Assembly (NCBI RefSeq): GCF_963853765.1
Contig: NC_088861.1
Location: 21,548,281-21,612,280, forward strand
Direction of reading: 5' to 3'
DNA from: Magallana gigas
Lineage: Eukaryota
Length of the DNA: 64,000 nucleotides
This document shows, piece after piece, positions 4,272 through 48,060 of the stretch. How positions within the stretch are numbered: the stretch's first letter is position 1; each line of letters begins with the position of its first letter. The notes below the pieces were generated by a model. The model was not told where the DNA came from, ran no database searches, and saw nothing but the letters and a program-made list of their open reading frames with translations. Both the position numbers and the translations under genes were made by a program.

Positions 4272-5477
4272 TTGAAAATGTCGTCATCAAAAATTGTGTC
4301 CGATGATTACCGAGAGATTGATTTTAAGATACATTACGACTATTACGGAGAAAAAAGATGCACCATGATTGGAGTTTCATTGCGTGAACTACTATCCCTT
4401 GGGTATGTTAATTGGCCTGGAAGGACTTATTCAGTCACAGATAAGATACCTGGGACGGATGCCGGTCTTGCGCATCATGTACAAGGATGATGAAAATGAC
4501 TTTATTGATATGATGGAAACCAATTTCAAGAAATTCATTCGACAAGTAAGATCAATTCAGATTTGTGATCGCGCTGTTGTTAATCTTAAAGTAACTGAGG
4601 GTTCTTCGCCAGCCGGAAACAAAGTTGGAATATCGGACGACAGGTCTAAATCTAAGTGCGTAAATGTTGAGCAAGATCCGGGACCGCAAGCGAGAAAAGG
4701 CTTGGATTTCCCAACATTGTCACAAGATTCTGAAGCAAGTATGTTTGACTTCTTCGAATATAAATCCCCCCTTGATTATTCCCTTCAATACATTGAGGAG
4801 GAAATGAACCAGTTGGGGGTACAAGTCCAGTCTGCCAAGGAGCGCCTGACAGAACTCACGGATAGGTATTGTGCAGTTGTTCAGGGCCGATGGAAACAGT
4901 GCTCGAACTGTCATTTGCGACTGGATCACAATATTCGACAATGTCGAATCGACAAATGCGTTACCTCTGAACAATGTTGAGATTTGAACAATTAAACATC
5001 CCGATCAAAAATTGATTGTGGATTCCGCTGCCGATACTCTAAAAAAGCTTGAACGTGCATGAATTGTCACATAAAAGAGACGAATATGAAATGAGACTAA
5101 AAGCGAAAAACAGTGCATCCCAGTCCTTTTTACAAAGAGTAAGAACACACCTCATAAATGGCAACAAAAATAAATATCTTATACCAACGGCAGAATGGGT
5201 GATTCCTAAATCGGCTGCAGTTAACGTTGATTTAGCGAAGCTTGAGAAGCATTTTAAAGGAAAAGTCCCCGCGGAGTTGGAAATAGTATCCACCCTATTC
5301 GAAAACATTATAGCAGGATACGACAAAGCCAACGCCCCCCAATCTCCCATAGCGAGTACTTCAACAAATCCAGCGGGGAGACTACTGGAATACAACTCGC
5401 TAATGGCAGTGAAATTCCCGCGATTATCTGGTAAGACACTTAATTTAGATCTTTGTAAAATTTACGTTTGCTGTTTG
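4272..5477 (+). CDS. PB1-domain protein-like coding region split over three frame-linked segments
   Basis: 4272..4490 (IDFKIHYDYYGEKRCTMIGVSLRELLSLG) and 4369..4980 (LGRMPVLRIMYKDDENDFIDMMETNFKKF) together form a PB1 fold signature, then a coiled-coil segment and a C/H-rich tail. ORF 5049..5570 returns to the first frame. This implies short introns or frameshifts. The ORF runs into an (AG)n microsatellite. Confidence 0.35.
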
Positions 5478-11401: not shown

Positions 11402-13096
11402 TGTGTCATATAATATTTTGATACTGCGAAATATTGAACCCGGGTTCAATATATTATGCGATATTATGAACCCGGGTTCAAAAAATCGCTGCGATATATT
11501 GAACCCCCCCCCCTAAAATATCGAACCCCCTACTTATTTCCAATTCCCTTTGGAGAGGGGGTTCAGAATATTATGGCTGCGATATTTTGAACCCCCCTCT
11601 ATTTTCTATTGCTATTAGAGAAGGGGTTCAAAATATTATGACTGCGATATATTGAACCCCCTTCTTATTTCCAATTCCCTTTGGAGAAGGGGTTCAAAAT
11701 ATTATGGCCGCGATATTTTGAACCCCCTCTCCAAAGGGATTTGGAAATAGGTTGGGGTTCAATATATCGCAGCCATAATATTTTGAACCCCCTCTCCAAT
11801 AGCAATGAAAAATAGAGGGGGGTTCAAAATATCGCGGCCATAATATTTTGAACCCCTTCTCCAATGGGAATTAGAAATACACATAGAGTTAGGGGGTTCA
11901 ATATATCGCAGCCATTATACATTTTGAACCCCCTCTCCAAAAGCAATAAAAAATAAAGGGGGGGGGGGTTCAAAATATCGCGGCCATAATATTTTGAACC
12001 CCCTTCCAATGGGAATTGGAAATAGGTTGGGGGTTCAATATATCGCAGCCATAATATTTTGAACCCCCTCTCCAATAGCAATGAAAAATAGAGGGGGGTT
12101 CAAAATATCGCGGCCATAATATTTTGAACCCCCTCTCCAATGGGAATTGGAAATAGGTTGGGGGTTCAATATATCGCAGCCATAATATTTTGAACCCCCT
12201 CTCCAGTAGCAATGAAAAATAGAGGGGGGTTCAAAATATAGCGGCCATTATATTTTGAACCCCCTCTCTAATGGGAATTGGAAATAGGTAGGGGGTTCAA
12301 TATATTGCTGCCATAATATTTTGAACCCCCTCTCCAATAGCAATGACAAATAGAGGGGGGTTCAAAATATCGCGGTCATAATATTTTGAACCCCCTCTCC
12401 AATGGGAATTGGAAAGAGGTAGGGGGTTCAAAATATCGCGCCCATAATATTTTGAACCCCCTCTCCAAAAGCAATGAAAATAGAGAGGGGGGGGTCAAAA
12501 TATCGCGGCCATAATATTTTGAACCCCTTCCAATGGGAATTGGAAATAGGTTGGGGGTTCAATATATCGCAGCCATAATATTTTGAACCCCCTCTCCAAT
12601 AGCAATGAAAAATAGAGGGGGGTTCAAAATATCGCGGCCATAATATTTTGAACCCCCTCTCCAATGGGAATTGGAAATAGGTTGGGGGTTCAATATATCG
12701 CAGCCATAATATTTTGAACCCCCTCTCCAGTAGCAATGAAAAATAGAGGGGGGTTCAAAATATAGCGGCCATTATATTTTGAACCCCCTCTCTAATGGGA
12801 ATTGGAAATAGGTAGGGGGTTCAATATATTGCTGCCATAATATTTTGAACCCCCTCTCCAATAGCAATGACAAATAGAGGGGGGTTCAAAATATCGCGGT
12901 CATAATATTTTGAACCCCCTCTCCAATGGGAATTGGAAAGAGGTAGGGGGTTCAAAATATCGCGCCCATAATATTTTGAACCCCCTCTCCAAAAGCAATG
13001 AAAATAGAGAGGGGGGGGGGGGTCAAAATATCGCGGCCATAATATTTTGAACCCGGGTTCAATATATCGCGGGGTTCAAAATATTATATGACACCG
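11402..13096. repeat. Foldback-like element or satellite array: 131-bp dimeric unit of palindromic 65/66-bp subunits, with terminal inverted repeats
   Basis: Period 131 bp, for example ttcaat at 12034 and 12165. Each subunit is a dyad: gaaccccctctcc...agaggggggttc plus aaaatatcgcggccataatatttt. Orientation flips near 11730. The two ends are inverted repeats of each other: start tgtgtcatataatattttga, end tcaaaatattatatgacaccgg. Confidence 0.8.
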
Positions 13097-14787
13097 GTAC
13101 CCAAATGGAACGTAAAATGACCCAAATTGACCCAAATGGAGCCCAAATGGAAACAAATGAACCCAAATGGAATCACAAATGGAAACAAATGGAAATTGAA
13201 TGGCATAATTGAAGATTTTATTTAATAATTTCAATCATTATTTGATGAATAATCAATAAATATAAATTCTAAAACGACATTTTCTTGTGTTGTTAATGAT
13301 TTTTTATTGATATATGAATTTATATATAACTATAAATAAAACTGTTGATATATAATCATATCGAAATATCTTTAAATTATAACAATATAATTCAAATATT
13401 TATTTTCGATCTTGGTTAAATAAATCCACAATGAACCAGCAACAATTGCCAACATGGTTCTAGATCAAATATCGGACAGATTGTTGCACCAGTTTTACTT
13501 CCCAGATGCCAACGACACTGCCGTCAGGGCAAGCGGTGATGGGGATTGCCTGTTCAACGCCGTGTCCACATTGATGATTTACTCAACCATAAAATGTGAC
13601 ATCAAATGTGACAAACCAAATAGTGACTTGTGAAAAATCATTATAATAATAAAAACACCAATTTATGACTTTTTTCATAAAAGAACTTATTAATATAATT
13701 GTTCTTGAGTAAGATTGTTTGAGGTAACTGAGTCCGGGCCCTGGTAGGGCGTCGTGTTTAACACGATAGGAACAGTTTCTTAATTTAATACAGTCTGATA
13801 TTTCTGTTTGTACAACGATGTAGTTACAATATTAATATATGATTTATTAATAGTTTAATGGTACCAAGTGCTGAAAATATTTGATGTAGAATTATAAGAA
13901 AAATGTTATTCTATCTAGGGAAATATGCATAAATAATAGTTGTCTTCTAAATATAGATGTAAAAATGTATATAAGTTAGTTAGATGGCAAATTATTGTTA
14001 TGCATGTTAAATAATTTAGGGGCTGTAAATACATGTACAGTGCTGTTCTGTTGTTTCTTTTAATAGTGCATTTAATCATTCAAATAGTAGCTCAAACCAA
14101 TCCTGTAGTGCATGTTTTGATATTATGTTTTTTGTTTGCTTATACATGTAAAGTATGTGGTTCATTTTTCATGCATCAATTTTTGAATTAAGTTTTTGAT
14201 TTTCAAATCGATTTTTGGGCTAATTTTTTTTTAAGGTCTTATGAAATTCTAAGTAACCATTAATTATTTTAACATACATATTTTATTTTTAAACAAAAAA
14301 ATTTTTTTTTTTTAATATTCTGCTCGGAAATTAGGCCCTATAATGTTTACGTTTAATTTTTCAATTCGTTCTTTTGACTTTAAATATTTTTATTTGTAAT
14401 TATTTCAATTTGTTCTTTTGGCTTTAAATATTTTTTATTTCAAAATTATGGCCTCCACGTGGCAAGAGCTGGACAGCGTTATACTACTTATAACGGCAAA
14501 CAATCCCATAAATAGATTAAAAAAAATTAAATCATGCATTTAAATCGTGAAACAAATTTATAAGGCTACATTATCTAATTCTTTTTCGATTTGGTCAAAA
14601 ATTGTTGTTCAATGTTTTTTGTTGTTGAAAATTTTCAATAAAAAACTCATTTATTAAAAATAATGATTGAAATTTTTAAATAAAATCTTCAATTATGCCA
14701 TTCAATTTCCATTTGTTTCCATTTGTGATTCCATTTGTTTCCATTTTGGTCATTTTACGTTCCATTTGGGTCCATTTGGGTAAATCG
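13097..14787. mobile_element. Non-autonomous TIR element, family B (CCCAAATGGA-rich termini), copy 1, left end truncated
   Basis: Ends are ...cccaaatggaacgtaaaatgacccaaatt... and the inverse ...ccatttgggtaaatcgacgcaccc. It has no ORF. Its left terminus lacks the terminal GGGTGCGTCGATT and abuts the foldback-like array. Confidence 0.7.
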
Positions 14788-16497
14788 ACGCACCCAAATG
14801 GAGCCCAAATGGAAACAAATGGAAACCCAAATGGAATCACAAATGGAAACAAATGGAAATTGAATGGCATAATCGTAGATTTTATTTAATAATTTCAATT
14901 ACATGATGAGTAATCAATAAATATAAATTCTAAAACGACATTTTCTTGTGTTGTTAATGATTCTTTATTGATATATGAATTTATATATAACTATTAATAT
15001 AACTGTTGATATATAATCATATGGAAATATCTGATTCAACCATCATATGTGACATCAAATGTGACAAACCAAATACCACCGAATGTGATAAACCAAATAG
15101 TGACTTGTGAAAAATCATTATAATAATAAAAACACCAATTTATGACTTTTTTCATAAAAGAACTTATTAATATAATTGTTCTTGAGTAAGATTGTTTGAG
15201 GTAACTGAGTCCGGGCCCTGGTAGAGCGTCGTGTTTAACACGATAGGAACAGTTTCTAAATACAGTCTGATATTTCTGTTTGTACAACGATGTAGTTACA
15301 ATGTTAATATATGAGTTATTAATAGTAAAGTGGTACCTATAAAAACTTATTAATGAAATTGTTTTAGAATAAGATTGTTTGAGGTAACTGAGTCCGGGCC
15401 CTGGTAGGGCGTCGTGTTTAACACGATAGGAACAGTTTCTAAATACAGTCTTATTTCTGTTTCTACAACGATGTAGTTACAATGTTAATATATGATTTTA
15501 TTAATACCGAGCGCAGCGAGAGGCGGGCGAAGCCCGCCTCGCGAAGCGAGGATTAATGGTAACACGTATATATAAGAAAATCAGTGAAAAATGAAAGTTG
15601 AATCAGGGGTACTAAGGCCCAAAATAATTTCTTCCAGCCCTGGGCGCCGCCATATTGGCAGCCATTTTGTTTTTAAAAAGTTAGTTCGATCATTGATTGA
15701 CTGGTACTTATTGATGTTTATTGCCCCTAAACTCAATTAAAATGTTCCAGTGTTTCAATGGAAGGTAATTTTAATTAAAAGAAATAAAAGAGGACACCAG
15801 ATAAGTTCCAATAGTGCTTTAATCAAGAAACACGACTAGGTGTATGTATGTCTTATCAAATTATCAGATGGAAAATAAAAACATTAACATCAAGGAACTG
15901 ATCTTTTAGATACTGAATAAAGTATTCAATTTTATTACCGCGGCATTTATATGAATTAAATCGATAAACAATGAAAGAAGAAGTTAAAAAAAGTTCGGAA
16001 TAATAAACGTAACTCTCTTCGGCTATTTCCGAAGACAAAACGTTGTACGTTTTACGTCTGAAAAATGACGTCATAATGTAGACAGAGCACGCGACGTTTA
16101 GTAAACTTTGGCTAATGATTTGAGTAGGCAACCAGGCGAACCCTACTGTGTGCGTTTCATATAAATTTAATTTGTTCTACAAAAATCAAACTGCACAGTG
16201 TGAAATCTGCGCTCGGTCCAACGGTCACACCGTTTATATATTAGTTAAGTGGTACCAAGTGCTGTAAATATTTGATGTAGAATTATAAGAAAAATGTTGT
16301 TCAATGTTTTTTTTTTAAATTTTCAATAAAAAAAACTCATTTATTAAAAATAATGATTGAAATTATTAAATAAAATCTTCAATTATGCCATTCTATTTCC
16401 ATTTGTGATTCCATTTGGGTCCATTTGTGCTCCATTTGGGTCCATTTGGGTCATTTTACGTTCCATTTGGGTCCATTTGGGTAAATCGACGCACCCT
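14788..16497. mobile_element. Family B element copy 2, head-to-head with copy 1, containing an internal duplication and a nested 727-bp insertion
   Basis: Starts aaatggagcccaaatggaaac, shares internal sequence with copy 1 (15040-15500 matches 13560-13870), and ends gggtaaatcgacgcaccc at 16497. It is interrupted at 15509-16235. Confidence 0.55.
15509..16235. mobile_element. Unclassified 727-bp insertion inside family B copy 2, starting with GAA-triloop hairpins
   Basis: Absent from the homologous site in copy 1 (ttattaata|gtttaatggtacc). Begins CCGAGCGCAG followed by hairpins ggcgggc-GAA-gcccgcc and cctcgc-GAA-gcgagg. The inverse CTGCGCTCGG lies near the other end, which also contains a TGACGTCA motif. 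Confidence 0.45.
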
Positions 16498-22537: not shown

Positions 22538-22785
22538 GTTTTCCAGTTCCTCAATGGAAAATGCGAGGCTTCACACAAAATGAAGAGGAATCCACGCGAG
22601 ATTAATTGGACAGTGCTATACAGAAGAAAGCACAAGAAAGGCAATCTTGAAGAGATTGCTAAAAAGAGAACTCGCAGGACTACCAAGTTTACACGTGCTG
22701 TCACTGGGCTTTCTCTTGCTGAAATTCAGGCAAAGCGAAACCAGAAACCAGAAGTGAGGAAGGCACAGAGAGAACAGGCCATCAG
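22538..22785 (+). CDS. RPL24: 60S ribosomal protein L24, exon 3
   Basis: Acceptor ttgtag at 22536-22537. Encodes [82 protein letters not shown](R), near-identical to the central region of metazoan RPL24. GTTAGT donor at 22786. Confidence 0.9.
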
Positions 22786-24046: not shown

Positions 24047-24725
24047 ATGAGTCTCTATGGAACACCATGGCTGCCTTATAGCATTAGACTATAGGTACAT
24101 TATGTCAAATTACCATTACATTATGTCAAAGTCCATTACGTGGTGTGAATATATCTTTACATTTGGTCAAATCGTTATTACGTGATGTCAAAAGCACGTT
24201 AGGTGAAGTAAACATGTCTTTACATTATGTCAACTTTTCATGTTGTGATGTAAAATCATCCTTACGTTATGCCAACATTGTACAACCAAAGGTCAATACA
24301 TCATGACATTATTTCGACACTGTATTACATGGGGCGAATGTATCCTTACATTATGTCAACATTTTATTACATGCTTTCAATATATCCTTACATTATATCA
24401 ACACCGCAGTACGTATCGCGATTCTATCCTTACATTATGTCAACATTTTATTACATGATATCAATGCGTTTTTACATTTTATCAACACCTTAATACATGG
24501 TGTTAACTCATCCTTTCATTATGTCAACACTTTATCACTTTATGTCAAAAGTACATTACTTGATACGAAAATGTCTTGACTTTTTGTCTAAACTTTATTA
24601 CCTGATGTAAATAAGTCTTTACATTAGGCAAATTCTCTATTCCGTGATGTATACGCTCTATTACTTTAAGTCGAAACATCATTCCGTTATACAAACACGA
24701 AATCCTTGGTCTTTGTATATTTGTC
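24047..24725 (+). repeat. Left arm of a large inverted repeat (about 680-bp arms, 1.6-kb spacer) containing an about 41-bp minisatellite
   Basis: Reverse complement of 26338..27003. Internal repeats of tccttacattatgtcaacattttattacatg. ORFs 24269..24493 and 26544..26780 are identical translations of the two arms. Confidence 0.8.
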
Positions 24726-26337: not shown

Positions 26338-27003
26338 CCGTTTCCTTGTATATAGAAAGGCCGATGTATCCGTGTTCGCGTAACGAAATGATGTTTCACC
26401 TTAAAGTAATGGAGCATGTACATCATGAAATAGAGAACTGACCTACAGCAAAGACTTATTTACATCACGTTATTAAGTTTAGACATAACGTCATAAACTT
26501 ATGATATCAAGTTATAAAGGTTTGACATAATAAAACGATATATTTACACCATGTAATAAAGTGTTGATAAAATGTAAAAATGCATTGATGTCATGTAATA
26601 AAATGTTGACATAATGTAAGGATAGAATCGCGATACGTACTGCGGTGTTGATATAATGTAAGGATATATTGAAAGCATGTAATAAAATGTTGACATAATG
26701 TAAGGATACATTCGCCCCATGTAATACAGTGTCGAAATAATGTCATGATGTATTGACCTTTGGTTGTACAATGTTGGCATAATGTAAGGATGATTTTACA
26801 TCACAACATGAAAAGTTGACATAATGTAAAGACATGTTTACTTCACCTAACGTGCTTTTGACATCACGTAATAACGATTTGACCTAGCGTAAAGATATAT
26901 TCACACCACGTAATGGACTTTGACATAATGTAATGGTAATTTGACATAATGTACCTATAGTCTAATGCTATAAGGCAGCCATGGCGTTCCATAAGTCTCT
27001 TTA
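26338..27003 (-). repeat. Right arm of the large inverted repeat
   Basis: For example, 26941-27000 is the reverse complement of 24050-24110. Confidence 0.8.
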
Positions 27004-28060
27004 CATCAGCGTACAGTGGAATAATTTTTATTTGTGGGGGTCAATGTTGAAGGGTAGCCAAAATTTTCTTGGTTCATGGGGGTCAAATTTCGTTGGTAGC
27101 TTCTCTTTTGGAGGAAATTCCAGCATAAAAAAAATGATTATAAAGCAAGTATTTCAACCAAGTCGCTGCCTAAGTTGGTCCCTGATCATAGTACGTTAAT
27201 ATCAAACACTTGAAACACTGAAAAACTTCAATATTAGTAACTTAGATCTATTTCTTATTGACTTGAAATCAAAAACACAAAAACAACATAACAGCAGTGT
27301 TTGAAAAAACCAACTGCCGGACAGCCTGAGGCACATTACTTTTGGCAGGGGCTAAAAAATTTGTTTGTACGAATGCCTGACTGGACGTGTATATTTTTTT
27401 AGGGCCAAGTGTATATAAAATCGGGATCAGGGTTTCAAAAATTTTAACTGATTCTTGTCATACTATTGCTTTCCTTGTATGGTCATTTAACACCAGTCAA
27501 GACAAGTGTTAAATTTATGTAGACTATGCTTGACACGTGAGCATGGCAAGGTAGAGTTCCCATGCTATGAAATAATATAGGTAAACTTGGCGAGATTCTT
27601 TGAGACTGAAAAATTTTGACACGCGTCTTCTCTGAATCCCAACTTCTGTCGGTTGTTATGATAGAAATACGCTGAATTAAATCAACTGCCTGCTTCAACT
27701 TTTTATTTTGAACATCGTTTGATTTCCCTATCATCGTAGAATGTTAGTTTCAACTTTTTACTTTGAACATCGTTTGATTTCCCTATCGGCATTGAATGTT
27801 AGTTTCCTAACGTTTAATGGTTTTAATCCCACAATATATGAACTTGTTGTTTTTTTTAAATTCATTTCCATATGCATTCACACCTCATGCCTAAGAGTTC
27901 CAGTCAAGGTCAAATATACTCTCAGAAGTCCGGAAGAAACTTTAGTCAAATTTTGTTAGTCTCAAAGAATCTCGCTGGGAACAATAAAAAACCTAACGAG
28001 TTTATGACAGAAAGAAATTAAAACAGATATTTTAATGAAAAGAAATAAACAAATGTCAAC

Positions 28061-28067
<7 letters not shown>

Positions 28068-28097
<30 letters not shown>

Positions 28098-28140
28098 AAT
28101 TGGTCTTCGTCCGTCGTCGTGCGTTCGTGCGTCGTGCGTT
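28068..28140 (-). repeat. Inverted-orientation terminal module (perfect palindrome plus (CGTC/CGTG)n) bordering the 168-bp satellite
   Basis: aggtcacctgagtcactcaggtgacct, then gtcttcgtccgtcgtcgtgcgttcgtgcgtcgtgcg, the reverse complement of a GACG-like repeat. A related motif actcaggtgaccgttaaggccaattggcc recurs at 30205 on the far side of the array. Confidence 0.55.
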
Positions 28141-28199
28141 AACAATTTTACATTTTTAACTTCTTCTTGAAAACTACCAGGCCAATCGTTACCATTTTT

Positions 28200-30060
28200 G
28201 GTGTGAAGCATCTCTATGGTAAGAAGAATCTAAATTGTGAAATTCATGGCTCTACCACCCCTGGGGTGCCACGGGCGGGGCCAAATATGCAAAAAAAGCC
28301 AAATTTTCAAAAATCTTCTTCTCTACTCCCACGCATGTGAGGAAAAAACTGGTTGCATGGTTATGTTGTCCATGAAGCCCTCTACCAAAATTGTGAAATT
28401 TATGGCCCCTGGGTCAGGGGTTCTGGCTCTAGGGTGGGGCCAATATGGCCATATAGTAAAACTGTATTTAACCTTAGAAAATCTTCTTCTCTACTACCAT
28501 ATATTTTTAAAAAACTTAATGCATGATTATGATGTCCATGAAGCCCTCTACCAAAATTGTGAAATTTATGACCCCTGGGTCAGGGGTTCAGGATCTAGGG
28601 TGGGGCCAATGTGGCCAAATAGTAAAAATGTATTAAATCTTAGAAAATCTTCTTCTCTACTATCATACATATTTGTCAAAAACTAAATGCATGATAATGA
28701 TGTCCATGAAGCCCTCAACCTAAATTGTGAAATTCATGACCCCTTGGTCAGGGGTTCAGGCTCTAGGGTGGGGCCAATATGGCCATATAGTACAAATGTA
28801 TTAAATCTTAGAAAATCTTCTTCTCTACTCCCATATATATTTGTCAAAAACTAAATGCATGATCATGATGTCCATGAGGCCCTCTATCAAAATTGTGAAA
28901 TTAATGACCCCTGGGTCAGGGGTTCAGGCTCTAGGGTGGGGCCAATATGGCCATATAGTAAAAATGTATTAAATCTTAGAAAATCTTCTTCTCTACTACC
29001 ATATATATTTGTTAATAACTAAATGCATGATTATGATGTCCATGAAGCCCTCTACCAAAATTGTGAAATTCATGACCCCTGGGTCAGGGGTTCAGGCTCT
29101 AGGGTGGGGCCAATATAGACAAATAGTAAAAATGTATTAAATCTTAGAAAATCTTCTTCTCTACTACAATATATTTTTGTTAAAAACTAAATGCATGATT
29201 ATGATGTCCATGAAGCCCTCTACCAAAATTGTGAAATTCATGACCTCTGGGTCGGGGGTTCAGGCTCTAGGGTGGGGCAAATATGGACAAATAGTAAAAA
29301 TGTATTATAACTTAGAAAATCTTCTTCTCTACTACCATATATATTTGTCAAAAACTAAATGCATTGCTATGATGTCCATGAGGCCTTCTACCAAAATTGT
29401 GAAATTCATGACCCCTTTGTTAGGTGTTCAGGCTTTAGGGTGGGGCCAATATGGCCATATAGTAAAACTTTTTTAAATCTTAAAAAATCTTCTTCTCTAC
29501 TCCCACACATGTGAGCAAAAATCTGAATACATGGTTATGATGTTCATGAGGGCCTCTACTAAAATTGTGAAATTCATGACCCCTTTATTAGGTGTTCAGG
29601 CTCTAGGGTGGGGCCAATATGGCCATATAGTAAAAATGTTTTAAATCTTAAAAAATCTTCTTCTCTACTCCCACACATGTGGGCAAAAAACTGAATACAT
29701 GGTTATAATATCCACAATCTCCTTTACCTAAATTGTGAAATTCATGGCCCCTGGGTCAGGGGTTCAGGACATGAAGGGGGGGGGGGGGCGCAATATAGTG
29801 TTAATGCATATAATGTTTAAAAATTTTCTTCTCTATTCTCACACATCTGTATAAAAAAACTGACTTATAATTATGTTTACCAGGAAGTCCTCTACTGAAA
29901 TTTTAATTTTCATGTTCCCCTCAAGGATGGGTTTTGACTCTAGGACAGGGCCAAAATGGATGTATAGATGTTAATGCATATAACGCTAAAAAATTATTTT
30001 CTTTACTCCCACACATCTGAAAGGAAAACTGAATTCATGATTTTGTAGACCAGATCTTTT
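28200..30060. repeat. Satellite array with 168-bp unit, about 11 copies, degenerating at the right end
   Basis: gatgtccatgaagccctctaccaaaattgtgaaatt recurs at 28531, 28699, 28868, 29035, 29203, 29371 and 29539. ORF-track ORFs here are translations of the repeat. Confidence 0.85.
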
Positions 30061-30414
30061 AGTTTTTCACCAAAATAATAGGTTTCACAGTTCTTTTTGA
30101 AATGAGGTCGTCATTACAAATTTATTATTTTTTTACTCCAGTATGAAACCTAATTAATCAGATGCATATATGAGACTCCATGACAAGTTTTAGTATGGGA
30201 TATATGCTACTCAGGTGACCGTTAAGGCCAATTGGCCTCTTGTTTCTTTGGGCTGGTTGATTTTAACAGGGCTGACAAATTATACTAGCTGTCAGCCCTG
30301 AGAGTCTAGCTAGTTTTTTGAAGAGTTTAAAACACTGATAACAGTTGTAGAAATATTTGATGTTGACTTAGACTTGTGAAATTCACTTATTGGTTTCTGT
30401 TCTTTAATTTTTAG

Positions 30415-30466
30415 AGCTGCAAAAGAGAAACAGAAAGCTAAAGATGCTCTAAAGAAACAACAAAAG
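30415..30466 (+). CDS. RPL24: 60S ribosomal protein L24, exon 4
   Basis: Acceptor tttag at 30413-30414. Encodes (R)AAKEKQKAKDALKKQQK, the lysine/alanine-rich tail, and ends at the GTATGA donor. Confidence 0.8.
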
Positions 30467-38539: not shown

Positions 38540-39205
38540 TCCCCCATCTTCTTTGAAACAGTGCAAAATCCGTGACCAAGAAAGAGCCAATAACTTCCGA
38601 TATTCTACAGCAAATTGTGAAACGTAACGGGACGGGAAGTAGCATTTTACCGGACATTCGAATTTCATGTATGTGTTTATTAAGTTATGCAGCTTTTTGC
38701 GTTTTTCGGACTGGTCAACTTAAAACACTCTGACATCGTATTTTATGAGGATCATCTTTTTTTGTTCATTTCTAAGAGCAAAACGGACAAATACAAGACT
38801 GGAAGTAATGTTTTTGTTTCTAGGACAGATAAAGTAGCATGTCCGTATATGTTAAAATTATATTTGAAAATTGCTGATATTTCTTCAGATTCTGATTGTT
38901 TTATTTTCAGGGCAGTTACTTATTGTAAGAAATCTGTTGAATATAAATTAAGAGATTCTGGACCATTGTTGTTTAGTAGAGCTAGAGTATTATTGCTTGA
39001 AGCATTAGAAAATGTTGGTGTAGATAAGTCCAAATTCGGGCTTCATAGTCTTAGGTCTGGGGGCGCTACCGCGGCTGCCAATTCTGGTGTGAGTGACAGA
39101 CTGTTCAGGAAGCATGGCAGGTGGCGTTCCGACAATGCTAAAGATGGTTATGTGCATGAAATTGTGAAGTCATTAATGTCTGTGTCCAAGTCTTTGAATA
39201 TTTGA
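38540..39205 (+). pseudogene. Tyrosine recombinase fragment (phage-integrase fold; Crypton/DIRS-like), with a frameshift
   Basis: ORF 38687..39205 contains HSLRSGGATAAANSGVSDRLFRKHGRWRSDNAKDGYVHE, giving the H-x-x-R, HGRW and terminal Y catalytic signature. The upstream segment ...PITSDILQQIVKRNGTGSSILPDIRISCMCLLSYAAFCVFRTG is in another frame. There is no RT nearby. Confidence 0.6.
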
Positions 39206-39854: not shown

Positions 39855-40941
39855 TGTTACAGTCTTTGTTTGAAATAACTGACAACAAAGATATCTGTAT
39901 GGTTCGTTTTATTTGTATCCGGACACAGTGACTTTAAAATTTGCAATGTATATTTAAGCCCTGAAATATCATAAAACAATAATATAATTTATATCAAAAT
40001 ATAACATTAGTACAATTTATATGTATTTCCATCAAGATAATATTTTTACATTATCTTACTATAATTGTACTTAAACATTTAGCGGGAGGTAACTCTTATA
40101 ATATACATGAATTACATTTCTCCAAAATAAGTCATAAAATATATATTAATCAGATAAAAAAATATTTAAAAACACTTTCTCACCATTCTATGGGAACAGG
40201 CTCATACACCGATTGCGTGGTGAGATTAAATTGACATTGACTGATTCTGTAATATGAACAGAATAATTCTAAAAATATTTATTACTGAAGTATAATCTAA
40301 TTGATCTTATAAATGACCAATTTAATCAAATATCTGATCATCATAAAATTCTTATATACAATTGATTTGAGAATCAATTAATACTATAATAAATAAACCA
40401 AATATTGATCTTTACACTGTATTCCATATAAAAAAATATCTTTTCATTCCAATTCATTCATACTCATTAGTTTGTGATCATGGACGGAATTAATGTTTTC
40501 TGCAATTTATAGGATAATCAATTTATTAGTAGTAAGTGTTATAGGATATTAGTATACTTAGTATAACTTACCAGAAAAAGAGCAAGGTCTGGTCCAAAAT
40601 AAATTTACTTCTCAATATAAATATAGTCTGTTCTAGTCAATGTCCAGACAAAGATTGTCAAACTTGGCGGTAAAACACATAAAGCAAAATATACAAACCA
40701 ACCAAATTCAACCTGACACAAACAACCAATAAAAACCAAGATCACAAATATCCACTGACCAACTCATGATCAAGTACTGCCCTAAGGGTATATATTGTAC
40801 ATGTGTATGAATTAAAAGAAAGGGTGGATCTAACTTTTTTATATGTGTAATGTTTAGATGTATCAATTACAATAACTTTATTTATTTATATTACAATAAC
40901 TTTATTTATTTATTCAAATCAACAATTTTCATACTCTTACA
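39855..40941 (-). repeat. 3' LTR of the gypsy element
   Basis: Direct repeat of 48061..49147. Ends with ...CA and is followed on the element strand by the purine tract GGGGGGAGAG. Confidence 0.9.
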
Positions 40942-40951
40942 CTCTCCCCCC
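40942..40951 (-). other. Polypurine tract GGGGGGAGAG immediately upstream of the 3' LTR
   Basis: Plus strand ctctcccccc abuts the LTR start on the element strand. Confidence 0.5.
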
Positions 40952-41049
40952 GGTCGCAGAATGACTTCCACGTCATTCAACTCGGAAGCTGCATATATCT
41001 GAAGAGTAACATGGCATAAAATACATATATTTACAATTTAAAAAAAATA

Positions 41050-44000
41050 TCATGTATTAGAACATGTAGAAGCAGACACAATGTTAAGTAAAGCCATCTG
41101 GCATCTACTTCGGTCAATGTCTCGTAATGAACCATCATTCATCAACCCTTTCACAAATACTGCTCTTTGTAGCCAATCTGGTTGTGTCTGGTTCATCATG
41201 ACAAACTCCTTTGTCCATGCTGGCATTTTTCTTTGTCTGGTAGATCTTCTTGGGGCTGGAGTAGGTATATCGACATTTTCTCTGGAAGGCATTTCATCTT
41301 CAGAATCATCAGATTCATTGATGTCATCATCAGTGCTATCAACATCATGGATGATATTCTCATCATCATCATCATTGTTGACATCATCCTCTGGTTCATC
41401 ATCATTGATGATCTCTTCAGGTTGGTTCTCAGGCTCTCTATCCTGATGGGAAGCGTCCTCCCCTGAACCAGCTGCTGAAGCTTCCTCAGTTGTAGATTGA
41501 TCGTCATCATCTAAACTGGGAGTAACTTGGGAATTTTCATTTCTAAATGCAGAGTTATCTACATAAGAAAATTCACTGTCACTATCTGAATCATTCTCAG
41601 TAATAATGCTTACTGGTTCTGCCTTCCTTCTCTTTCTAGGAGTAACTGGAGGAGGAGAAGTACTTCTTGGAAGCTTTGTTCCGATAGGTAGAAGCACATT
41701 TCTATGAAGAACTCTAGTTCTTCCTTCTCCATCCTCACGTCTGACTTTATAAACCGGAATGTCATCATTTGCTTTCGCTAAAATGACATAAATATCATCT
41801 TCCCATTTATCAGCAATTTTATGTTTGCCGTCGTATGCCACTTTCTTGACGAGAACTCTGTCACCTTCCTCTAAAGTGATGGCTCTTGCTTTTATGTCAT
41901 AACGGCATTTCTGGTTCTGCTGAGAAGATTTTATTGCTGTTTGTGCCTGTCTGTAAGCATCTTGCAGTCTTTGCTTCAGCTCGGATATGTACTTAGTTGT
42001 ACACTTATCCTCAGAATGGCTGCTGGAAAATCCAAAGACCACATCTACTGGCAAAACTGGTTCTCTTCCAAACATTAGATAGAATGGTGTGAACCCAGTT
42101 GTATCGTGTCTAGTAGAGTTATATGCGTGAACCAGTGTGTTTATATGCTTTTTCCAATTAGCTTTCTGAGCGTTATCTAATGTTCCTAGCATTGATAATA
42201 ATGTCCTATTGAATCGCTCTGTAATACCATTACCCATAGGGTGATATGGCGTTGTCCTGGATTTAGAGATGCCAAATATGGAGCATAATTCCTTAATGAT
42301 GTTGCTGCAGAAATTTGTCCCTTGGTCCGAATGAAGTTTAGCTGGAATCCCGTAATGAACAATAAAATGGTTATAAATAGCTTCTGCTGTTGTTTTGGCT
42401 GTTTGGTTCTTGGTTGGCACGGCAATTGAATATCGTGTGAAATGATCGGTTATGACTAAAATGTTTTGTATTCCTCCTTTCGATGGTTCAAGAGTGAGAT
42501 AGTCCATGCATACAAGCTCTAGTGGCTCTGATGTTCTGATGTTGACCAATTCTGCTCTCTCATTGCTGGTCTTGCTCTTAATGCATCTTTCACAGGAGTT
42601 GATCCAATCAGAAACATCACGCTGCATCTTTGGCCAGTAAAATCTTTGCCTAATTAAGGAGAGAGTCTTATCTCGCCCTAAATGACCCATCTTGTTATGT
42701 AAGTATTCCAAAACAGTGGGATACACTGATGCAGGAATTACATATTGCTGATGAGTATTGTCATCTACTTTGACTTCTCTGAGTAAAATACCATCTTTTA
42801 CTCTAAGTTTGGCAAAGTTCCTGTGGTAAACAAAATCATCTTCAGTAATAAGTGTCTCTCGTTTGGGTCTAATACATTCCTGTACCTTGTTTTTCCAAAA
42901 ACTAACAGTAGGATCTGTGTTTTGGATTTCCATGATATCCAAATACTTTCCAATATCTGTACAAGGTTGTACTTGGTTGCAAATAGCATCATCTATAGCA
43001 AGAGATTCTGCATATGGCTGTCCAGTTGCAAGCTGGCAAATTGCCTTAATGGTGTCACTAGATACTGTTTCCACTTCCTTTAATCTGGATAGTCTATCTG
43101 CATCTATATTTGTTTTCCCTGGTTTGTAGATGATCTTGAAATTAAATGAAGCTAATGCTGAAATCCATCGATGTCCAGTTGCATCCAATTTTGCTGAAGT
43201 TAAAACATAGGTAAGGGGATTATTGTCGGTGTATACTACAAATTCTTTGCCTTGAAGGTAATCTGAAAATTTTTCTGTGACTGCCCATTTAAGTGCCAAA
43301 AATTCCAGTTTGTGAGTAGGATAATTCTTTTCAGATTTACTCAATCCTCGACTAGCATATGCTATAACTCTATCCATTCCATCCTGCTCCTGATATAGCA
43401 CTGCGCCTAGTCCTGTCTGACATGCATCGGTATGGAGCTTAAAAGGTTTGTCGAAGTCTGGGTAACCTAGGACGGGTGGTGATGTAAGTTTCTGCTTAAT
43501 GAGGTCAAATGATGTTTGCTGTTCCTTCTCCCACCTCCACTTTGGATCCACTTTCTTACTTCTTGATTTTTTTCCTGTGGCCATGATATCTAATAAAGGT
43601 CTAGCAATTTTAGAGAAATCATGAATAAATTTTCTATAGTATCCTGCAAACCCTAAAAATTGTCTTACCTCTTCAGGATTCTGTGGAATAGGCCAGTTTT
43701 TAACTTTAGCAAGTTTATCAGGGTCTGGCTCAACCCCATGCTCGGACACAATGTGTCCTACATATTTAACCTTCTTCATAAGTAAGGAACACTTTTTGGG
43801 AGAAAGTTTAAGCCCATAATCTCTAATTCTCTGGAAAACTTGCTGAAGGCGATTAAGATGTTCCCTGAAAGATTTAGAAAATATGATTAAATCATCTAAA
43901 TATACAAAACAAATTTTTAGATGAAGGTCGCCTAAACATTGCTCTTGAAGACGCTGATAGGTTGCAGGGGCGTTTGCAAGGCCAAAACTCATGCGGTTAA

Positions 44001-45456
44001 ATTCATAAAACCCAAGTGGACCAACAGTGAAGGCAGTTCTCTCCTTATGCTCCTCTGCAATTTCTATCTGATGATAGCCGGACTTCATGTCTAATACACT
44101 GAAGTAGGTGTTACCTGAAAGAGAATCTAAAATCTCTTCTATTCTAGGCAGAGCATAATTATCTTTGATAGTCCTAGAATTAAGATACCTATAGTCTATA
44201 CATAGCCGCAAGGATCCATCATGCTTTCTAACTAAAACTACGTTAGATGAAAACGGAGAATGAGATGGTCTGATAATGCCTGCAGCTAGTAAATCCTTGA
44301 TGTGAGTACGGACTTCCTCAACCAATGCTGGTGGTACTCTCCTGTACTTCTGCTTAAAAGGTATCTCATCAAGGAGTTCAATTCTGTGCTTCACTTTGTC
44401 CGTTGTACCTATGTCTGTTGCTCCTGTTGAGAATATATCCCTGTAAGAATTCAACAAATTCAAACAGTCCTGTTTTTCATCTTCTCCAATATCATCTGGG
44501 AGTTGAATTTTGGATATAATATCCTCAATTTGCTCTGAGCTTGACAAAGAGGATTTCTCAACTGTTGTGTCCTCAATAGCAACAGGCTGTATTTCGCAAA
44601 TCACTCCTTTTGGGGATATTGAAATAGTCCTGGTTGTTATGTTGTTGATGGTAACAGGCATTGTTTGACACTCTTCATACACATACTGATGCAGTGTAGC
44701 TTCTATGTCTACATCAGATGGAATGCAGGATTTTTCAGATTGCTGCATCATGACAGTTACTTGATGATAAGGAATCTTCTTATCCAAGTATCCAAGAATG
44801 GTCACATGACTGTTCGGAGGGATGATAACTCTATCTGTCTCAGCACTCTTTACTAATCCTAATACATAACCATGTCTGTGTAACTCCCTCTCTCTCAATG
44901 CAATGCATCTGAATGCTAAATACCATGGTGTGTAAATGGCTGCATCCTGCAGAAATCTTGAGCCAAACTCCTGTTTTGTCACATCCATTAGGTTCTGTAA
45001 GATGTTTGTTCCTATAAGCACTGGTACATGTGCATTATAATTGCTCTTGGGAACAACTAAAAACAGACAATCATTTAGTTTGTTCAAAGATGGAATACCA
45101 AATGGTGTTAAATCAACACATACATAGCCAAGATAGGGCATCAGTTGACCATCCGCACACTCTATATTGATAACGTCATCCAGTGAATGAAGCTCTACAT
45201 CTGAAAGGTACTGATTATAAAATGCTTCGCTTAGAGTGGATACTGTTGCTCCTGTATCTAGAAGAGCTGTACATTGTACATCATTGATGGCCACTGATAT
45301 TTCATTTGGTTTTCCAATTAGTTGTTTTTCTCTGGGACCCTTGATTCTCTCACCAACCCCTTGTCCCCAGGTGCTGACGTGTTGTAGTTTAAAGCCTGGC
45401 GCCTGTGGTTGACTAAAACTCTGCATCCCACAGCGATATGGCCTACCTGTCCACAT
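41050..45456 (-). CDS. Retrotransposon pol polyprotein (protease, RT, RNase H, integrase)
   Basis: 1468-aa ORF carries ALLDTGATVS (aspartic protease), YFSVLDMKSGYHQI and FVYLDDLIIFS (RT YXDD), DACQTGLGAVLYQ (RNase H), and HX3H...CX2C zinc finger plus the D,D,E core of an integrase. The order PR-RT-RH-IN is gypsy-like. An acidic D/E-rich C-terminal extension follows. Confidence 0.9.
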   Translation of the reverse strand: MWTGRPYRCGMQSFSQPQAPGFKLQHVSTWGQGVGERIKGPREKQLIGKPNEISVAINDVQCTALLDTGATVSTLSEAFYNQYLSDVELHSLDDVINIECADGQLMPYLGYVCVDLTPFGIPSLNKLNDCLFLVVPKSNYNAHVPVLIGTNILQNLMDVTKQEFGSRFLQDAAIYTPWYLAFRCIALRERELHRHGYVLGLVKSAETDRVIIPPNSHVTILGYLDKKIPYHQVTVMMQQSEKSCIPSDVDIEATLHQYVYEECQTMPVTINNITTRTISISPKGVICEIQPVAIEDTTVEKSSLSSSEQIEDIISKIQLPDDIGEDEKQDCLNLLNSYRDIFSTGATDIGTTDKVKHRIELLDEIPFKQKYRRVPPALVEEVRTHIKDLLAAGIIRPSHSPFSSNVVLVRKHDGSLRLCIDYRYLNSRTIKDNYALPRIEEILDSLSGNTYFSVLDMKSGYHQIEIAEEHKERTAFTVGPLGFYEFNRMSFGLANAPATYQRLQEQCLGDLHLKICFVYLDDLIIFSKSFREHLNRLQQVFQRIRDYGLKLSPKKCSLLMKKVKYVGHIVSEHGVEPDPDKLAKVKNWPIPQNPEEVRQFLGFAGYYRKFIHDFSKIARPLLDIMATGKKSRSKKVDPKWRWEKEQQTSFDLIKQKLTSPPVLGYPDFDKPFKLHTDACQTGLGAVLYQEQDGMDRVIAYASRGLSKSEKNYPTHKLEFLALKWAVTEKFSDYLQGKEFVVYTDNNPLTYVLTSAKLDATGHRWISALASFNFKIIYKPGKTNIDADRLSRLKEVETVSSDTIKAICQLATGQPYAESLAIDDAICNQVQPCTDIGKYLDIMEIQNTDPTVSFWKNKVQECIRPKRETLITEDDFVYHRNFAKLRVKDGILLREVKVDDNTHQQYVIPASVYPTVLEYLHNKMGHLGRDKTLSLIRQRFYWPKMQRDVSDWINSCERCIKSKTSNERAELVNIRTSEPLELVCMDYLTLEPSKGGIQNILVITDHFTRYSIAVPTKNQTAKTTAEAIYNHFIVHYGIPAKLHSDQGTNFCSNIIKELCSIFGISKSRTTPYHPMGNGITERFNRTLLSMLGTLDNAQKANWKKHINTLVHAYNSTRHDTTGFTPFYLMFGREPVLPVDVVFGFSSSHSEDKCTTKYISELKQRLQDAYRQAQTAIKSSQQNQKCRYDIKARAITLEEGDRVLVKKVAYDGKHKIADKWEDDIYVILAKANDDIPVYKVRREDGEGRTRVLHRNVLLPIGTKLPRSTSPPPVTPRKRRKAEPVSIITENDSDSDSEFSYVDNSAFRNENSQVTPSLDDDDQSTTEEASAAGSGEDASHQDREPENQPEEIINDDEPEDDVNNDDDDENIIHDVDSTDDDINESDDSEDEMPSRENVDIPTPAPRRSTRQRKMPAWTKEFVMMNQTQPDWLQRAVFVKGLMNDGSLRDIDRSRCQMALLNIVSASTCSNT

Positions 45457-46607
45457 CTATAACAAGTAGGGGGTTCTCTTACCCTGGAACTCTGAGGTTC
45501 CTTAGCAACATCTGTACTTTGGGGCTGAGGAAATCTGGGATATTGCCTATATCCTCCTCTGTATCCTCTTTCCTGTCTGCCTCTCTGATATGGTTGTCTT
45601 GGTGCCCTATAAGGCTGGGGCATAGGAGTATAAGAATACTCTTTTTCCTTCATACTTCTGACCTCAGTGGTTAACTGATTAATCTTAGCTTCTAAGCTAT
45701 CGAATCTGTCAGCTGACTGGTCTTTCACTGTTGCAGCTTTTGCTGTAGCTGATTTCTTTTCTGTAGTTTGTGGATGATGTTCAATCTCCAGTTTTCTCAC
45801 AGATGTTCTCAATTCATCGAATGATTTGCATTTATCATATAGATGTCCACATATATCTTTAAGTGAAGGTCGCAGTCCCTTAAAGAACATGGTTCTTAGC
45901 ATCTCCTCGAACTGACTACGGTCAATGAGGTTTTTCTGTATAGCCTTATTCAGAATATCCTCCAATCTACAACTCCATCTCGCACATTCCTCATCCTCTC
46001 TCTGTCTAGCACTGTAAAACTCTGACAGAATGTCCTCTTTTTCAGCCACTGTGCCATAAATACTGTCTAGCTTCTGTATAATTGAGGATATTCGTGCTCC
46101 TGGTCCAAGATGCATTACCACTCGACTTGCTTCTCCTTTAAGTGAGCGTCGTATAGCATGATGAATGACATCTGGACTATAAGACTCATTATAGAGACAT
46201 TCCACCTCATATCTCCAAACTTCATATGTGGCATCATTCTTAGAATCTCCGGAGAAAAATGGAATTTTAGGGAACTGACTAGGAGGTAGAGATTTGGCAG
46301 GTTGTGAAGAAGCAGAGGCAGTATCAGTACTTACAACCTCTTCCTTGATCTTCTTCTCCTGAACAGCAGATGACATCCATGATAAAAAATCTTCAGCTGA
46401 ATCAGCTTTTGGTTTCATCTTTAGCTGCTTGAGTGCAGATACCACTTTGGCTATCTCCTCTGTTGACATTGATTCCTCAGTGTCTGACATGGTGTTAAAT
46501 TGTATGATTGTAGCTAACACAAGTAATATTGAATATATCAAAGAAAATTCACACAAATTCATGCAACAACACAATGCATGTAACCAAGTAGATGTTGGTA
46601 TAAGCAA
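45318..46607 (-). CDS. Retrotransposon gag with C-terminal CCHC zinc knuckle
   Basis: 429-aa ORF contains CYRCGQVGHIAVGC (CX2CX4HX4C) near its C-terminus. It overlaps pol by 139 nt in a different frame, which suggests a programmed frameshift. Confidence 0.85.
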   Translation of the reverse strand: MLIPTSTWLHALCCCMNLCEFSLIYSILLVLATIIQFNTMSDTEESMSTEEIAKVVSALKQLKMKPKADSAEDFLSWMSSAVQEKKIKEEVVSTDTASASSQPAKSLPPSQFPKIPFFSGDSKNDATYEVWRYEVECLYNESYSPDVIHHAIRRSLKGEASRVVMHLGPGARISSIIQKLDSIYGTVAEKEDILSEFYSARQREDEECARWSCRLEDILNKAIQKNLIDRSQFEEMLRTMFFKGLRPSLKDICGHLYDKCKSFDELRTSVRKLEIEHHPQTTEKKSATAKAATVKDQSADRFDSLEAKINQLTTEVRSMKEKEYSYTPMPQPYRAPRQPYQRGRQERGYRGGYRQYPRFPQPQSTDVAKEPQSSRVREPPTCYRCGQVGHIAVGCRVLVNHRRQALNYNTSAPGDKGLVRESRVPEKNN

Positions 46608-48039
46608 ATGAGTAACTAAATTTCACACAGATTATATCACTGCAAGAAATGGCAAATTCAGCAATGTGAATAGTTTTAAATCAGGAGGGTAGTTCAAAAT
46701 GAACCATAAATAATTTGGACAGTATGCAAAAGGCACAATCAATTATTGCAAGCAACAGCTGATGATGTTTCTTTAAGTAAATGAATCAAAGAAATAAATA
46801 AGTTCTACCTGAAAGAAAAAATTCAGTTCAAATATAAAGATAACAATAAACAAATGATGAAAGAATTCAATAAATCTTTTCTATATTGAAATAAACAAGA
46901 AAAAATACCGAGATTAATGGAAACAGCGAATTTCCTCGATTACACTTTGTTTACTTCCGGTGAAACGCAATTATTACGGAAATCGAGCCTGATTAGATTT
47001 TTTTAACGGCAAAAACCGAACCCGATGATTTTTGAACGGCGAAAACCGAACCCGATGATTTAGATACGAGTAGAAATAATATGAACAGTGGAGATCAAGC
47101 TTAAAACTAAATTAAAGGGGAAATTAATTAAATGTGTGTTTTAAATACTGTGTATAGCTATCAAACAACACAGAAACCACTTAGACTGATACTACTACAA
47201 CTCTGCGACAGAAAACTTGTTCAACACTGAACTCATCCTCAAAATAAACAATGATGCAAACCAACTCAATCAACCGGCAAAGTAGTCCAAATCTCACGTC
47301 AGTCTCGTCAATAAACTGTCAAGTCTTGAAAGTATACAGCAAATAGTTTTCTAATTAGCTTTTATAACGTTAATTAGTATATTTGGAAATACAAGGGAAA
47401 ACAATATGGGTTGTGCGCAAATTGTTAATGTTTTCACTTACACTGCACTGTACCCACACTTCCTTTCTTGCTATTGTTGTTCTTAATTTCAAATTCAAAT
47501 GATCAATACACAATAAAGGGCAAAAATATATCTCAACAAAAAAATGGTTTAAGGATTGTGGCCAAACGCAACCCTGTCTCAATCAATATTACACAGGTAT
47601 TTAAATCCGGATAACTTATACTAAAGTGCACTGTCAAACTAAAGAAATCACAGATTTACATGCTTTGTGGTATACCAATTCTTTCAACAGTTTAATGAAT
47701 TATGATAAATCAAGACTTGTCTACCTTGAGGTAAAGTGTGCATACATGCGCGCACACAAATTACTAATGTCAATATGGTGCACCAAAGTCTTATATCTAT
47801 ACGACTCACCAGGTGAGATACACAGTTTGTTTGCACGTGTTGTACTCTGTCAATGAGTTGAACAGCTGATCCTAGGAATAACAATAGATGCGCGGATCCC
47901 AGTCAATTTAGGAACACAGGCGCGGAACACTAGTCATGGTTCAATAGGAATACACTGGCAATGGTCGTCATGGTTCACAGTTCACTGGGTATAGGGTTGG
48001 TGAAGTCTTTCCAGCTCCAATTACATATAAAGTCACTGT

Positions 48040-48057
48040 GTCCCAACGTGGGCGCCA
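48040..48057 (-). other. Primer-binding site TGGCGCCCACGTTGGGAC
   Basis: On the minus strand the 5' LTR is followed by TT then TGGCGCCCACGTTGGGAC. This is complementary to a tRNA 3' end ...GUCCCAACGUGGGCGCCA and shares TGGCGCCC with tRNA-Lys-type binding sites. Confidence 0.6.
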
Positions 48058-48060
48058 AAA

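Follow-up and report, generated by a model that had tools for sequence, protein, structure and literature searches.

The 64,000-nucleotide stretch of Magallana gigas analysed here, hereafter the window (NCBI RefSeq assembly GCF_963853765.1, contig NC_088861.1, positions 21,548,281 to 21,612,280 of the forward strand), carries a 168-bp tandem array that very probably travels inside a transposon. Taken together, the data indicate that 28061-30244 on the plus strand is one non-autonomous Helentron, of the kind called HINE, DINE-1-like element, pearl or Cg_HINE. This 2.2-kb element would belong to the Helitron-N2_CGi lineage (Cg_HINE group 1) and carry repeats distantly related to the Cg170/HindIII satellite as its cargo. 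This assignment follows from the anatomy of the element, its homology to published conserved boxes, the dispersal of further copies, and a monomer number that varies between the same ends. The element is most likely a copy of a catalogued HINE of the C. gigas Helitron-N2 group, and this kind of element is already known and well documented in C. gigas. An initial annotation of the window had proposed an array lying within a single unit with defined ends, not at an arbitrary locus. The unit is borne out, as the same ends flank related arrays at unrelated loci; what was missed is its transposon nature, the 12-mer shared by the two flanks being the known Helentron system of subterminal inverted repeat (subTIR) and adjoining inverted repeat (IR).

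All of the pieces earlier placed at 28060-30240 are present, and comparison with other copies sets the termini at 28061 and 30244/45, which is essentially the same. The region 28061-30244 holds a palindrome, a (GTCN)n tract, ~11 monomers of 168 bp, a second ACTCAGGTGACC and a 14-bp palindrome. The modules follow one another in the order T-run, 5′ subTIR, complementary IR, microsatellite, spacer, satellite-like repeats, 3′ subTIR, 3′ palindrome and ...CTTGTT. They are given below, where L-numbers denote the public metagenome contigs that carry the comparison copies.

28061-28065, plus strand: 5′ terminal T-run, the element start and apparent T-rich insertion site; TTT(TT)AGGTCACC is common to the window, L043, L044, L047, L049 and L051, and the upstream sequence differs in each copy.
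28067-28078, plus strand: 5′ subTIR GGTCACCTGAGT, the perfect complement of 30209-30220; it aligns to the start of published Box 1, TAGCTCACCTGAGC.
28080-28091, plus strand: IR ACTCAGGTGACC, complementary to the 5′ subTIR and 1 nt away from it, the two together making up the palindrome at 28065-28093.
~28105-28139, plus strand: left-flank microsatellite of the (GTCY/GTCK) type, present in every related copy, among them L039, L043, L044, L047, L049 and L051.
28140-28343, plus strand: spacer, a Box 3 homologue, grading into a degenerate first monomer; conserved in L043 (86%), L044 (77%) and L046 (74%).
28344-29673, plus strand: eight well-conserved 168-bp monomers in the order A, five B, two C, from Tandem Repeats Finder (TRF), the identity matrix, the monomer map and the tree.
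29686-30053, plus strand: the degenerate terminal monomers, two or three in number (D, E and a remnant); their identity is 68-75% to the consensus and 91-92% to the L043 monomers in the same position.
30054-30208, plus strand: non-repetitive inner right flank of 155 bp, 81% identical over 171 nt to L043 2085-2255.
30209-30220, plus strand: 3′ subTIR ACTCAGGTGACC, also in L043, L044 and L047; it aligns to Box 2.
30225-30238, plus strand: 3′ palindrome AGGCCAATTGGCCT, a short stem-loop, perfect over 14 nt and followed by CTCTTGTT.
30239-30244, plus strand: 3′ terminus ...CTTGTT; GGCCTCTTGTT is common with L044, CACTTGTT with L047 and CCTCTTGT with Box 2, and the downstream sequence is unrelated.

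The 5′ end is built around a palindrome that had been described as perfect over 27 bp. It is perfect, and longer than that: 14+1+14 = 29 nt at 28065-28093 (TAGGTCACCTGAGT-C-ACTCAGGTGACCTA, 100% complementary). As single-stranded DNA it forms a hairpin of -13.5 kcal/mol (z = -5.9). The two subTIRs are complementary at 12/12 positions, the 5′ one lying 1-2 nt past the T-run and the 3′ one 24 nt from the 3′ end. With at most one mismatch allowed, the 11-mer CTCAGGTGACC has three matches in the 64 kb, all of them inside the element, against 0.29 expected. The microsatellite of the left flank is short and impure, (GTCC/GTCG/GTGC)n, and corresponds to a CGTC/CGTG tract. At the opposite end, the 3′ palindrome stops 6 nt before the end of the element, where published Box 2 has GGCCCATGGGCC. 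Outside the termini, the sequence upstream of 28061 ends AATAAACAAATGTCAAC, and that downstream of 30245 begins TCTTTGGGCTGGTTGATTTTAACAGG.

Both flanks had also been held to share a longer stretch, the core followed by AATTGG. The 12-bp core recurs around other arrays and is therefore not coincidental. AATTGG, in contrast, is private to the window copy: elsewhere the left flank reads CTATGGG or CCATTGG, and the right flank CTGTGGGCC or CTGAAGACC; the true likeness from flank to flank is thus the 12-bp core alone. A deeper homology between the IR region of the left flank and the whole right end was considered and dropped, only the 12-mer being shared across copies.

Comparison with the conserved Boxes 1, 2 and 3 published for Helitron-N2/N2C of C. 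gigas connects these modules with named elements. Box 2, which represents the 3′ end, matches 30210-30243 at 28/34 positions (82%), with a score of 38 against a shuffle maximum of 24, and the matching segment includes GGCC..GGCCTCTTGT. Box 3, the interval between microsatellite and repeats, matches 28146-28212 at 51/69 positions (74%; score 46, shuffle maximum 30). Box 1 (TAGCTCACCTGAGC-CGAAG-GCTCAAGTGAGC) aligns at the exact 5′ end, has the same subTIR-IR design, and is identical at 26/35 positions (74%).

The window also contains a second HINE, at 56520-57211 on the minus strand, which comprises TTTTTAGCTCACCTGAACCGAAGGTTCAAGTGAGG, (GTCC)n, a near-perfect Box 3 (56980-57132) and ~2.5 CgiSat09-like monomers. 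It is an almost perfect match to the published C. gigas boxes and resembles Helitron-N2C_CGi / Cg_HINE_10_13. A separate Box-2-type 3′ end lies 7 kb from it, at 49683-49722 on the minus strand.

Further copies were found by two routes. Scanning metagenomes for the flank pattern gave 40 matches, two of which are related contigs (L036 and L039); the other 38 are chance matches in high-GC contigs. The remaining contigs were reached by searching a protein collection with a spurious open reading frame (ORF) that runs through the array. Scans of viral and prokaryotic collections for the 5′ palindrome returned nothing, the single viral match to the flank pattern is a chance one in a 56% GC contig, and a search of literature text for the subTIR and monomer motifs gave unrelated primer matches alone.

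The independent ends number eight or nine on the left and three or four on the right, and their surroundings are unrelated. Left ends are seen in L036 (two), L039, L043, L044, L047, L049 and L051, and right ends in L043, L044 and L047; L050 was dropped as an independent copy because it is the same locus as L044. At the 5′ junction, T(3-5)AGGTCACCTGAGT is common to the window, L043, L044, L047, L049 and L051, with different sequence upstream each time, and more diverged forms occur in L039 and L036. At the 3′ junction, ACTCAGGTGAyCGTyAA..GGCC..CTTGTT is common to the window, L044 and L047 and is followed by unrelated sequence. In L044 the true right end is at 4309-4346, an earlier candidate at 4077-4117 being a chance resemblance. 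No target-site duplication (TSD) is visible in the three complete copies. The IR next to the 5′ subTIR is kept in 6/7 related left ends and deleted in L043, and the 3′ palindrome is imperfect in L044 and L047 and absent from L043.

The changes in L043 can be located. At 983-1010 a clean deletion has removed one arm of the 5′ palindrome, the second (AGGTCACCTGAGT|TTATTGCAAT), and at 2256-2275 the sequence diverges 4 nt past the 3′ subTIR, leaving this copy without the 3′ palindrome. Palindrome instability plus 3′ truncation could account for both changes, as could an assembly artefact.

The arrays between these ends differ in length. The initial annotation had put the window array at ~11 copies of 168 bp, which agrees with the ~11 units counted when degenerate edges are included, and it had suggested looking for the same flanks around differing numbers of monomers. 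Such copies exist: ~11 monomers lie between the ends in the window, 6 in L043, ~7.5 in L044 and ~6 in L047. With respect to the left flank, the array points the same way in all copies compared (the window, L043, L044, L046, L047 and L049).

In the monomer tree, the first good monomer of the window (28344) groups with L043 1248 and L046 533, and the penultimate type (29339 and 29518) groups with L043 1574. The degenerate terminal monomers pair in the same manner, 29686 with L043 1727 and 29855 with L043 1900, at 91-92% identity. Beyond the monomers, the spacer and first degenerate unit are 86% identical between the window and L043, and the 155-bp inner right segment 81%. The central B type, in contrast, is represented five times in the window (28499-29171, mutually 92-95% identical) and once in L043 (1404). 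As edge monomers are matched by position and internal ones differ in number, the edges appear to travel with the element, and the differences in length to reside in the homogeneous internal monomers. The monomer counts suggest that ~5 units were gained by the window copy or lost by L043. The basis of this fixed-edge, variable-centre pattern is two full copies plus fragments.

The array itself is reported by TRF at 28310-29768, with a period of 168, 8.7 copies and 89% matches; the in-register family, counted with its degenerate copies, extends from 28165 to ~30053 and gives the ~11 units. Central units are mutually 90-95% identical, and the first and the last two to three are 55-75% identical to the rest. 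The 168-bp consensus has 37.5% GC. Against Cg170/HindIII (CgiSat01b, CL1 array) it is 70-73% identical over ~110 bp, with scores of 52-62 against a shuffle maximum of 27, and the part of the monomer beyond these ~110 bp gives no alignment. Published Cg170/HindIII subfamilies are at least ~65% identical across the full monomer length. The alignment points to a distant relative of the Cg170/HindIII satellite, as reported for CL4.

The initial annotation had called the monomer nucleosome-sized, which is a remark on length only. Monomers of 160-180 bp make up 51% in C. gigas arrays, and the authors who described these satellites mention nucleosomal periodicity merely as a general idea. A length of 168 bp is simply the usual monomer size for oyster elements of this kind. 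Coding sequence and RNA genes were also considered for the array and dropped: the ORFs of the element are purely mechanical, even the best frames being interrupted by a stop in each monomer, and there is no RNA family (Rfam) or tRNA match.

The closest published counterparts are the Cg_HINEs (Vojvoda Zeljko et al. 2020, PMC7492417; Tunjic-Cvitanic et al. 2021, PMC8268682). Group 1 comprises Cg_HINE_1, _2, _4 and _10_13, which are Repbase Helitron-N2, N2d, N2e and N2C_CGi. Their left flank has an 11-12-bp subTIR, an IR 1-12 bp from it and a GTCY/GTCC/GTCK microsatellite; their interior consists of a 10-500-bp variable segment followed by 140-180-bp satellite-like repeats; their right flank has a subTIR and a palindrome; and they insert into oligo-T without TSD. 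The window element agrees with group 1 in the order and orientation of all modules, the 12-bp subTIRs and adjoining IR, the GTCY/K microsatellite and the Box-3-like spacer. It agrees further in its 168-bp repeats, which share two motifs with Cg170, in the 3′ subTIR followed by a GGCC..GGCC palindrome and a CTCTTGT terminus (82% to Box 2), and in its intronic location and apparent oligo-T insertion, with no TSD visible. It differs in the subTIR itself (GGTCACCTGAGT versus the published GCTCACCTGAGC) and in the spacing of the IR (1 nt versus 5). Within the group it is possibly Cg_HINE_4 (Helitron-N2e_CGi, whose repeat CL4 = SAT-2_CGi), a likeness drawn from description alone: the flanks are alike, and the monomers are divergent save for two motifs, ~168-170 bp long and ~36.5% GC, versus 37.5% here. 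The Cg170/HindIII satellite (BIV160-type) shares CAAAATTGTGAAATTCATGACCCC and AAATCTT..AAAATCTTCTTCTC with the window monomer, but one third of the monomer is unrelated, with a 10-20-bp difference in the G-rich middle, and the window array is short and element-borne, not long and heterochromatic.

Similar designs are described in other animals. DTC84 of the Donax clam has a flank, ~160-bp core repeats, an (ACGG/ACGA = CCGT/TCGT)n microsatellite and another flank, together with 11-bp inverted motifs. As here, its repeat number (1-5) varies between fixed flanks, and ordered repeat variants hold their position while copy number changes, a property that had been called unique to DTC84. It differs in species and sequence and in having been described as a miniature inverted-repeat transposable element (MITE) with an AA TSD, and the arrays here are longer (up to 11). 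The pearl elements CvA, CvE and CvG of Crassostrea virginica (Gaffney et al. 2003) and MgE of Mytilus are likewise interspersed elements of bivalves. They have at most 6 repeats of ~160 bp, related to Cg170-type satellites, and were later reassigned to Helentrons; they belong to other species and are likened here by description, not by sequence. In the DINE-1/HINE elements of Drosophila, mites and mosquitoes (Thomas et al. 2014, PMC4067079), the subTIRs are 12-15 bp long and an IR lies close to the 5′ one. A microsatellite and a 3′ stem-loop are also part of the design, tandem repeats in the centre are optional, and the boundaries are marked by Ts. These elements are mobilised by Helentrons and insert at TT without duplication. 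They share no sequence similarity with the window element; a core block is conserved in DINE-1, which mostly has shorter repeats or none.

If the element moves as Helitrons and Helentrons are understood to, its transposition would likely involve: copying of the non-coding element in trans, by a Rep/helicase(-endonuclease) protein that an autonomous Helentron supplies; recognition by the Rep protein of the 5′ subTIR/IR hairpin as the start and of the 3′ subTIR with its stem-loop as the stop; and insertion between Ts, at T-rich sites. Single-strand rolling-circle transposition would thus begin at the 5′ end and halt at the 3′ subTIR/stem-loop. Inside the element, the array could lengthen or shorten where its homogeneous internal monomers slip or undergo unequal exchange. 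Such changes in length may be the route by which elements of this kind seed dispersed satellite arrays.

Several observations weigh against the assignment to this Helentron lineage. The score of Box 1 (23) falls within the shuffle range (maximum 28), so that its position and architecture provide all of its support. The 3′ hairpin is thermodynamically unremarkable, with a predicted -4.2 kcal/mol and z = -1.2. CL4/SAT-2_CGi, the likeliest named identity of the monomer, is set beside it by description, not by sequence, and the 9-17-mers of the monomer that were searched have no exact match among 52 published C. gigas satellite consensus sequences. TT insertion without TSD is read from three complete copies, with no empty site recovered. 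No autonomous partner with these termini is present in the 64-kb window, and the literature links none to Cg_HINEs.

Other kinds of element would share some of these features. A cut-and-paste MITE, the class to which pearl and DTC84 were first assigned, would be moved by a DDE transposase, with the 12-bp inverted repeats as its recognition sites and a TT/AA target duplicated on insertion; perfect 12-bp inverted repeats do lie near both ends, both ends abut or contain Ts, and DTC84 was described with AA as its putative TSD. This is very improbable, given that the repeats are subterminal and asymmetric (at the 5′ end 1-2 nt past the T-run, on the other side 24 nt short of the 3′ end), that the ends are otherwise unrelated to each other, that the right repeat is followed by the 3′ stem-loop, and that the three complete copies have no duplication beyond shared Ts. 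The class itself has since been reassigned to Helentrons. Still less probable is a non-autonomous canonical Helitron, which would run from 5′ TC to CTRR 3′, carry a hairpin ~11 bp from its 3′ end and insert between A and T. Repbase does class related C. gigas elements as DNA/Helitron ('Helitron-N*_CGi'), and the window element has a 3′ hairpin near its end and no visible TSD. Here, however, the termini in all copies are TTTTTAGG... and ...CTTGTT, with a T(3-5)AGG start, not TC and CTRR; the flanks are T-rich rather than A|T; and subTIRs and a 5′ IR, absent from canonical Helitrons, are present.

The array might instead be an ordinary satellite that grew in place by unequal crossing-over, with a coincidental likeness between its flanks and a 168-bp period selected for nucleosome phasing. 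The period lies in the range often tied to nucleosomes, the centre is homogenised (90-95%) and the edges degenerate, and some local growth did happen, the B variant numbering five here versus one in L043. Such growth would leave unexplained why the left end, spacer, edge monomers and right end recur at loci with different surroundings, and why the ends match published transposon boxes; the flanks also show that the other contigs are not segmental duplicates of the window locus. This explanation is the hardest of these to credit, and the non-autonomous Helentron, whose array may lengthen or shorten internally, is the reading adopted here.

The window as a whole is AT-rich (~34% GC) and rich in repeats of eukaryotic kinds. 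The eL24 (RPL24) ribosomal-protein gene holds the element in a 7.6-kb intron; gene and element are oriented alike, and no host function for the element is evident. The upstream exon is at 22538-22785 on the plus strand (Pfam Ribosomal_L24e, 29.1 bits against a cut-off of 27), and the downstream exon at 30415-30466, also on the plus strand, continues ...QAIR|AAKEKQKAKDALKKQQK. Besides the HINE, this intron holds at least two other repeat elements. One is a pair of 509-nt inverted repeats at 24056-24564 and 26485-26993, 95% complementary, 1.9 kb apart and containing 21/42/84-bp subrepeats, which has the form of a foldback-like or long terminal inverted repeat (TIR) element. The other, just upstream of the HINE at 27590-27975, is a 386-bp MITE-like unit with 31-nt TIRs that are 90% complementary and a 55-bp tandem duplication inside it (27694-27803).

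Elsewhere in the window, a Gypsy-type long terminal repeat (LTR) retrotransposon occupies ~40500-49120 on the minus strand. Both its gag ORF (45318-46607) and its pol ORF (41050-45456) are intact. Two direct repeats lie 8206 bp apart, and a comparison of 300 nt shows them to be 100% identical; the insertion is therefore probably young. Its pol is 100% identical to a transcript-derived contig of run SRR13374887; runs SRR13374879, -888 and -889, with neighbouring numbers, are gonad RNA-seq of the Pacific oyster. Another ORF of the window is 92% identical to a Magallana gigas protein. Together with the second HINE, these matches point to C. gigas or a very close relative as the host. At 59524-60185, a 140-bp tandem array of 3.6 copies with palindromic motifs (GTGACCTTGACCTT...GGTCAAGGTCA) is edged on both sides by (ACAG/ACGG)n and short stem-loops, which makes it a repeat-carrying element of a different design. 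A 131-bp (2 x 66) array of 10 copies at 11425-13054 is bordered on the left by an inverted segment of 213 nt. Nearby, (ACCCAAATGG)n blocks in both orientations lie at 13099-13194, 14706-14859 and 16397-16486, and 133-nt inverted repeats at 13111-13243 and 14658-14790. An ORF at 38687-39205 on the plus strand is weakly like tyrosine recombinases (Phage_integrase, 18.5 bits, below the cut-off). Weak ORFs of this type are typical of Crypton/DIRS-like remnants in bivalve genomes.

The element illustrates, cleanly and in full, what has already been published for C. gigas: satellite-like repeats ride in Helentron-type transposons and change length there. Its importance beyond annotation is small. 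Arrays of this sort should be masked or annotated as transposon cargo, not as independent satellites, and the pattern of fixed edges and variable centre between copies is usable for studying array expansion. One tentative suggestion, which the evidence leaves somewhat short of even odds, is that the element belongs to a Cg_HINE subfamily still without a description of its own, with variants ordered A-Bn-Cn-D-E, inherited edges, and only the internal B and C monomers varying in number. In that case, arrays that are ordered and expand internally would characterise bivalve HINEs in general and offer a concrete handle on how satellites are seeded.

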